Source: Eledone cirrhosa (lineage: Eukaryota). Taken from it: 64,000 nt of DNA. The position numbers were made by a program, and so were the translations under genes. The stretch lies in the NCBI GenBank assembly GCA_964016885.1, contig OZ024749.1:8494001-8558000 (forward strand). The letters run 5' to 3'. A model generated the notes under the pieces. It saw nothing but the letters and a program-made list of their open reading frames with translations. It made no database searches and was not told where the DNA came from. This document shows positions 29,172 to 53,559 of this stretch, piece by piece; positions within the stretch are counted from its first letter, which is position 1, and the number at the start of each line of letters is the position of its first letter.

Positions 29172-29360
29172 ATAACGAAGGAAGTGTGGTAAGGAACCAG
29201 ATGAACTATAACGCACCAGAGTAATCAATACTTAGGGTAGTAGAGTGGGTAATAGGCAAATGTTTAACCCCGACGGCAGAGCTCAAGCCGTTTCGACGGC
29301 TATTTCAGAAATAGCTGTCGAAACGGCTTGAGCTCTGCCGCCGGGGGTAAACATTTCCAT
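29172..29360. mobile_element. Snap-back palindrome of HHR 3' halves plus tail (family H, copy 1)
   Basis: ccccgacggcagagctcaagccgtttcgacggctatttc-a-gaaatagctgtcgaaacggcttgagctctgccgccgggg, centred at ~29307; tail on the left. Confidence 0.8.
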
Positions 29361-48311: not shown

Positions 48312-48529
48312 TATAACGAAGGAAATGTGGTAAGGAACCAGGTGGACCATAACGCACCAAAGTACTCAATACTTGAGGTAGTAGAGTGGGTAATAGGAAC
48401 CAGTAAGACCCCGACAGCTGAGCTCAGGCCGTTTCGACGGCTAATTCTGGACGGCTATTCTGGACACATAATATGTCCAGAATTAGCCGTCGAAACGGCT
48501 TGAGCTCAGCTGTCGGGGTCTTACTGGTT

Positions 48530-48533
<4 letters not shown>
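48312..48533. mobile_element. Snap-back palindrome of HHR 3' halves plus tail (family H, copy 3)
   Basis: ...gtccagaattagccgtc GAAA CGGC ttgagctca GCTG TC gggg mirrored around ~48470, with a small duplication at the pivot; tail on the left. Confidence 0.8.
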
Positions 48534-52977: not shown

Positions 52978-53022
52978 AGTCACTGAAGAGGTCACAGAGT
53001 GTGTGACGAAAGGACTATGACT
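52978..53022 (+). ncRNA. Minimal hammerhead ribozyme in a pLTR related to the 7718 PLE (island ~52905-53172)
   Basis: AGTCA CTGAAGA g GTCACA gagtg TGTGAC GAAA ggac TA TGACT. The island ends atgaccctcccaaagtataacaat, like the 7718 family terminus. Confidence 0.8.
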
Positions 53023-53421: not shown

Positions 53422-53523
53422 AGTGAGGTTGTTTTACAAAATGAAAAAAAAAACGTAAAAGTAGAATTGAGATGGAGGGTTTGTGGTTTTTGAAAAACCA
53501 CAAAAACTTCCATCTCAACTCTA

Positions 53524-53559
53524 CTTTTGAAAAGCAGAAGAACTGCGAAACCGGTAAAG
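53524..53559 (+). ncRNA. Minimal hammerhead ribozyme, U3-A8 variant, preceded by an inverted repeat (~53457-53528)
   Basis: CTT TTGAAAA GCAG aagaa CTGC GAAA CCGG TA AAG ... aaataaa; ACCGGT palindromic stem III, GUA triplet. Confidence 0.65.

Follow-up and report, generated by a model that had tools for sequence, protein, structure and literature searches.

The 64-kb window analysed here (G000:C9:8494001-8558000, the whole stretch of DNA under study, from the 3.0-Gb assembly of Eledone cirrhosa) carries three short palindromic insertions, each built of a tail-bearing arm and a tail-less mirror arm whose 3' ends point outward into (TA)n on both sides. This arrangement, including the different centres of the three copies, is as the initial annotation had described it. 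In copy 1 (29175-29358), the tail-bearing arm occupies the minus strand (29175-29306, with the tail at 29175-29254) and the tail-less arm the plus strand (29306-29358); they extend 12 and 14 nt upstream of GAAA, respectively, and the centre is a 1-nt overlap between them. Copy 2 (38217-38414) has its tail-less arm (38217-38274) on the minus strand and its tail-bearing arm (38282-38414) on the plus strand, separated by a 7-nt insert (38275-38281) that repeats arm sequence, a kind of centre that recurs genome-wide in both polarities. In copy 3 (48316-48531), the tail-bearing arm (minus strand, 48316-48452) and the tail-less arm (plus strand, 48475-48531) flank a 22-nt insert (48453-48474) that is templated in part by arm sequence. 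The arms of all three copies contain GAAA, a 4-bp stem III with a GAGCTC loop, a GUC, GUA or GCC triplet, and GGGG. The tail-less arm of copy 1, for instance, holds this 3' half of a hammerhead motif at 29320-29347 (plus strand; GAAA, stem III, the triplet GCC and the 3' strand of stem I). No CTGANGA is found 5' of these 3' halves in the window sequence of copies 1-3.

Two further pieces of the same kind, absent from the initial annotation, were identified in the window. A diverged fourth copy (18763-18910) has its tail-less arm on the left and its tail-bearing arm, with a shortened tail, on the right, and its stem III loop is like that of a sister family whose long copies have a canonical C3:G8 core. 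A 36-nt piece on the plus strand between (TA)n runs (38159-38194) consists of GGA, which is the start of a tail-less arm, followed by the last 33 nt of the tail, and is possibly a minimal two-arm insertion. The repeat search of the window was dominated by (TA)n, and the matches listed in the Rfam scan (150 of 603) were all between microsatellites and miRNA models. Two hairpin-forming stretches (21727-21814 and 53460-53525, the second on both strands) gave weak miRNA-model matches.

Genome-wide, exact matches to a 28-nt arm pattern number 49,916, against 0 for its reversed control, which excludes chance, and short palindromes with both 15-nt arm cores exact and at most 30 nt between them occur at 12,477 sites. 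The oriented sample of short palindromes comprises 121 fetched copies (41 taken in genome order and 80 from two match lists), and it is to these 121 copies that the joint orientation statistics refer. Long head-to-head pairs were picked from the first 100 core-motif matches, giving 21 loci, two of which (L189 and L191) are compound and were omitted (n=19). The samples come from the initial 82 Mb of a single contig, arm extents were measured as exact matches to 33 natural upstream variants with overlaps included, and all evidence on mechanism comes from finished insertions.

The genome-order sample includes long copies, in which the order of elements is CCCC, UUGANAA, the 5' strand of stem II, a loop of ~40 nt with a distal helix, the 3' strand of stem II, GAAA, stem III, GUC and GGGG. 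The true 5' strand of stem II lies ~45-57 nt upstream of GAAA in these copies, and what had been taken for stem II at the symmetry centre of the palindromes is instead the 3' strand of stem II facing its own inverted copy in the mirror arm. The initial annotation also expected CTGANGA directly 5' of the gacggcta hairpin; none of the 23 matches to this arrangement belongs to the family, whose parent core reads UUGANAA. A wider search for CTGANGA 8-38 nt before GAAA gave 73 matches that are a mixture of heterogeneous joints and chance occurrences, with no shared stem II in the 30 that were read.

The core of the main family thus reads U3:A8, with 6,335 exact core-motif matches genome-wide, and is represented by U3:A8 at 21 of 24 loci and by C3/A8 at the other three, A8 being fixed by the search pattern. 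The C3/A8 subfamily (L121, L130 and L131), in which the 3:8 pair is expected to be broken, has still been amplified, so that cleavage may be dispensable. A series of core states is seen in related families of the genome: 30 sister loci comprise 20 with U3:A8, two with U3:G8, seven with C3:G8 and one (L316) that matched the core pattern by chance and was removed from the C3:G8 count. The canonical CUGAUGA/CUGACGA core is confined to this sister family (7 of 30 loci); as the canonical Hydra hammerhead core does not occur in the main family, its motif is a variant. Pairing tests were done on long copies. In an alignment of 30 natural copies, 89.5% of cells pair versus 20-52% in slid controls, although the shuffle test is inflated by kinship among the copies and the core is partly fixed by the search patterns. 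Position 3:8 covaries in the 30 aligned copies (UA 20, CG 7, UG 2, other 1), N7 is free, and U4, G5, A6, A9 and G12-A14 are invariant, in part through the search patterns. Minimum-energy folding gives the hammerhead in all three main-family copies tested and in neither of two decayed sister copies, where the hammerhead fold lies 0.9 and 8.3 kcal/mol above the minimum. Judged by sequence and predicted pairing, the long copies hold a complete type I hammerhead motif, with core, stems I-III, NUH triplet and 3:8 pair. The U3-A8 state is a compensatory form of C3:G8 that is reported to be active in vitro (PMC3088659), and U3-A8 hammerheads are present in schistosome Penelope-like elements, or PLEs (PMC4209133). 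The GUC site was read through in every arm, in line with an uncleaved RNA as the probable template; uncleaved RNA serves as template for the Poseidon PLE (PMC11167929). At two loci (L089 and L172) the tail-bearing arm ends near the predicted cleavage site, after GUC, and is joined there to the mirror arm; these ends could be run-off from cleaved RNA or deletions.

Upstream of the hammerhead motif, long copies contain ~1.2 kb of untranslated DNA and then an open reading frame, and in three of them (L096, L102 and L115) the arm is connected to the end of an ORF and to a frame of 710 aa. The parent is best seen in a compound insertion (L189:309-6127; G000:C1:11225900-11232500) that consists of an inverted tail-bearing arm and a partial tandem with an ORF, the arms being 98.8% identical. 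Its open 719-aa ORF (L189:3180-5339) has reverse transcriptase (RT) and GIY-YIG motifs, namely RWR at residue 37, DKT at 117, YRDD, CNCPDRSIC at 572 (CxCX5C), VIY/YIG, CNLCSEE at 670 (CxxC-E) and, read by eye, CKH (CxH) 9 residues past the N. The endonuclease motifs fall within residues 591-694, i.e. the endonuclease is C-terminal. Successive anchors are 3,118 nt apart, slightly above the '<3 kb' described for the Hydra clade, and since the tail continues into the 5' region of the ORF, it is the start of the next tandem unit. Homologs of the ORF number 403, those listed being mostly 35-52% identical; Pfam RVT_1 was matched in one of the four homologs scanned (36% identity to the element protein), and the L115 protein itself matched no Pfam family and no PDB sequence.

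A single RT/GIY-YIG ORF, partial tandems, inverted 5'-truncated copies and a tail are found together here, as in endonuclease-bearing (EN+) PLEs. The RWK-like motif, the change of DKG to DKT, CxCX5C, CxxC and CxH around E and N, and insertion into (TA)n are those by which the Hydra clade is defined (PMC8557442), and the C-terminal endonuclease and the unit of ~3.1 kb also resemble that clade. The parent is therefore almost certainly a Hydra-clade PLE, its placement being by motifs and not by a tree, and the arms, as had been predicted, correspond to the 3' portion of a hammerhead motif of a PLE and link to a PLE ORF. A Naiad reading was rejected, as Naiad has an N-terminal GIY-YIG domain and no hammerhead whereas the endonuclease lies here at residues 591-694 of 719, and a Helitron-type reading was dropped after the ORF was found.

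Exactly one tail is present in 119 of the 121 short palindromes, a TA run follows the tail-less end in 112 and the tail in 113 of these 119, and the tail-less end falls at a single position in 95. There are thus two fixed 3' ends, separated by ~80 nt, and within the element both of them immediately precede a TA. Among the 121 palindromes, 107 distinct oriented centres were counted, which indicates that palindromes are built anew at each insertion and not copied as a MITE; the uniform full-length palindromes that would mark an ordinary MITE were not what was found. At the joints the arms either overlap by 1-5 nt or are separated by a short insert in which nearby sequence is repeated, a pattern expected of polymerase-theta end joining. 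The two arms nearly always belong to the same subfamily (12 mixed palindromes versus 2,614 + 2,443 matched), which points to a shared template for both. Palindromes with both tails are rare, with 161 genome-wide compared with the 12,477 short palindromes, which were counted with a different pattern. Subfamilies are mixed in about 5 of 50 listed both-tail palindromes, by eye, and in the sample in 2/2 both-tail versus 1/88 one-tail cases; such cases would fit two RNAs, but are not relied on because one of them (L328) is compound and the other (L330) is a tandem start. At several loci (L025, L004, L008, L011 and L328) one insertion occupies the (TA)n flank of another, or insertions stand in tandem, so that new targets are provided by earlier insertions.

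The 5' truncation of the arms is sharply localized. In a genome-order sample of 92 arms, the end lies 11-26 nt upstream of GAAA in 64, 14 reach the core, 12 end earlier and 2 end slightly further, and the genome-wide ratio of core to arm matches (6,335 versus 49,916, obtained with different patterns) agrees with this. The stop zone spans 16 nt of the 3' portion of loop II, where the distal helix has its 3' strand. The prediction that pivots would cluster was thus borne out, while their location in stem II was not, and stem II does not template a fold-back. Tail-bearing arms of ~140 nt and tail-less arms of ~60 nt end at the same template positions, and four solo arms end at 5, 12, 19 and 22; hence the stop is set by position and a palindrome is not needed for it. 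Candidate causes are the predicted distal helix of loop II and a 6-bp hairpin (-6.7 kcal/mol) that could form in the new cDNA just behind the stop zone, and thus behind the enzyme. In a DNA run, summed contig depth climbs at the stop zone from ~200,000 to 2,860,000; being a sum of depths and not a copy number, this figure gives no more than a weak hint. On the RNA side, one contig was found in one small-share RNA run.

Taken as insertions, the palindromes are 5'-truncated head-to-head copies of a Hydra-clade PLE in (TA)n. It is probable (roughly 65%) that each of them represents two cDNAs of one RNA, primed at both ends of a break and joined head to head. The element enzyme would cut both strands of (TA)n, one 3'-OH would prime at the distal start to yield the tail-bearing arm, and the other would prime at the proximal start, ~80 nt further in, to yield the tail-less arm. 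Both cDNAs would likely come to a halt in loop II of the hammerhead motif, at one and the same position of the template, after which host end joining, perhaps of the polymerase-theta type, would anneal their 3' ends by microhomology and fill in. Strand displacement might allow both cDNAs to be made from a single copy; alternatively, a tandem or circular RNA might supply two copies. Purified Poseidon PLE cuts and extends both strands, and two internal starts bound its tail (PMC11167929). In that reaction the start site was alike on both strands, so that the in vitro result leaves the one-tail rule unexplained.

The alternative closest to the published self-priming proposal (PMC3846280), and to an endonuclease-resolution idea (PMC8557442), is that a stalled tail-bearing cDNA snaps back, pairing over a few bases, and serves as its own template, after which the endonuclease trims the mirror at the TA before the tail and later one-sided deletions blur the asymmetry. 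This is in essence the mechanism of the initial annotation moved from stem II to loop II. It directly accounts for the matched subfamilies and the single tail of each pair, and the commonest centres do resemble small fold-backs. However, a snap-back needs a tail-bearing arm at least as long as its mirror, and the tail-less arm is often the longer, which fits a simple snap-back poorly. In 119 short palindromes the tail-bearing arm is longer in 56, the tail-less arm in 45 and neither in 18 (p = 0.32 for symmetry), i.e. the tail-less arm is longer in 45 of the 101 unequal cases; in the 19 long pairs the corresponding numbers are 6, 8 and about equal in 5. The pairs with a longer tail-less arm include young ones: in L192 and L201 its excess reaches ~2 kb while the shared part is 99% identical (in L201, ~2 kb and 99.5% over the shared 197 bp). 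Against a snap-back also stand solo tail-less copies, the occurrence of the same joint in both polarities, and, among 14 short arms with an incomplete partner, 12 in which an intact tail-less arm is fused, by reading, to a tail-bearing stub that stops short of GAAA. The near-equal arms of 5 of 19 long pairs count against priming at both ends, as a snap-back predicts them too; three more pairs differ by only ~80-120 nt, so that 8 of 19 are within ~120 nt. For the short palindromes, one-sided deletion after insertion could produce symmetric statistics from a snap-back. On balance the snap-back is considered rather unlikely, and the polarity test on the present sample disfavours self-priming as published (PMC3846280). 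Of the original mechanism, the rebuilding of palindromes at insertion into a mimic of a MITE agrees with the 107 distinct centres, and simple fold-back does not agree with the longer tail-less arm in about half of the unequal cases.

A variant with two primers would retain priming at both ends and place the stop in the template: the RNAs would be transcribed from copies that were already truncated or palindromic, or would have been cut within loop II, and the arms would stop at the template end and not at a pause of the RT. The tens of thousands of short copies could indeed be transcribed, a shared template end would explain correlated arm lengths, and some complex centres recur. Nevertheless, the 107 centres among 121 copies and the recurrent joints of both polarities disfavour the copying of finished palindromes, and short templates are regarded as improbable. 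The ~200-bp size, high copy number, TA flanks and inverted structure would suit an ordinary palindromic MITE that a DNA transposase inserts at TA sites; target-site duplications are unreadable inside (TA)n. Such an element is refuted by the link to an RT/GIY-YIG ORF, reached through a continuous series of arm lengths, and also sits badly with the variable centres, the absence of terminal inverted repeats (there is a tail at one end) and the covariation in the hammerhead core, and its likelihood is negligible.

Priming at both break ends can be extended to PLEs at large, tentatively and with somewhat less than even chances. PLEs would integrate by double target-primed reverse transcription, in which a dimer with one RNA would prime the tail-bearing and tail-less cDNAs on opposite break ends; the hammerhead fold would be a roadblock that ends ~85% of events as 200-bp palindromes, and the ribozyme would thereby limit the spread of its own element. 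If this were true, the tail, the inverted pLTR and the mini-palindromes would all follow from one mechanism.

Inverted 5'-truncated copies with a one-sided tail belong to the standard anatomy of PLEs (PMC8557442), and palindromes at PLE head-to-head joints have been interpreted as self-priming (PMC3846280). The initial claim of an undescribed inversion therefore cannot be kept in that form. The present family shares with the PLEs of these two reports the head-to-head 5'-truncated copy, the single tail, palindromic or microhomologous joints and partial tandems (L189). It differs from them, as far as those PLEs are described in the available parts of both reports, in that most insertions are ~200 bp with 5' ends clustered in a 16-nt zone of loop II, and in a tail of ~80 nt versus 30-40. 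The Hydra clade was described with canonical hammerheads in the available part of PMC8557442, whereas here a U3:A8 core is combined with a structured loop II of ~40 nt and a 4-bp stem III; U3-A8 Hydra motifs may already be contained in supplementary file S2 of that report. The compensatory U3-A8 change is shared with the Cercyon PLEs of Schistosoma (PMC4209133) and with other natural variants (PMC3088659); in S. mansoni, dual hammerhead motifs have been noted on opposite strands 100-700 bp apart (PMC4209133). Unlike Cercyon, as described in the accessible portion of PMC4209133, C3:G8, U3:G8 and U3:A8 coexist here in related families of one genome, and the length of stem III suffices for folding as a monomer. 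Similarity to the Poseidon PAc reaction (PMC11167929) extends to an AT-rich target, cutting and extension of both strands, two starts bounding the tail and an uncleaved RNA template; Poseidon belongs to another clade, and in the available text its starts are without strand bias and are not linked to inverted pairs.

Twin priming of LINE-1 is a further parallel. In that process a single RNA is copied into two cDNAs, one primed from each target end, with a microhomology joint, and an upstream segment is inverted without being duplicated. Both primers of the present element, by comparison, would start near the same 3' region, which yields an inverted duplication. No paper on a two-primer model for PLE inversions, or on a stop in hammerhead loop II, was found in a literature search of partial coverage. 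Earlier publications already cover inverted pLTRs, tails, self-priming and U3-A8 hammerheads of PLEs; what is new is the stop in loop II together with the evidence that disfavours a snap-back. How the tandem and inverted structures of PLEs originate is 'undefined' according to PMC8557442 and unvalidated according to PMC11167929. The present family is a large natural data set on this question, as with more than 12,000 separate joints, fixed starts, a sharp stop and an open ORF, snap-back and priming at both ends can be separated by counting and then in vitro. It also illustrates that MITE-like palindromes can be by-products of a retrotransposon and that searches restricted to CUGANGA miss whole families of hammerheads.

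Further CTGANGA...GAAA motifs in the window, at 52983 on the plus strand and at 7973, 49142, 49744, 40227 and 27209 on the minus strand, look like hammerheads of other PLE families from their sequence, and several of them adjoin TA runs. Pieces of the 52983 type were also seen directly 5' of truncated arms at two loci (L059 and L071). Another repeat family with CTGATGA...GAAA is present in the window at 6763, 21877, 21664, 32323, 32047 and 52094. Two opposite-strand pairs of this repeat family, ~200-300 bp apart (21664/21877 and 32047/32323), possibly represent the same head-to-head architecture in a family other than the one described here.
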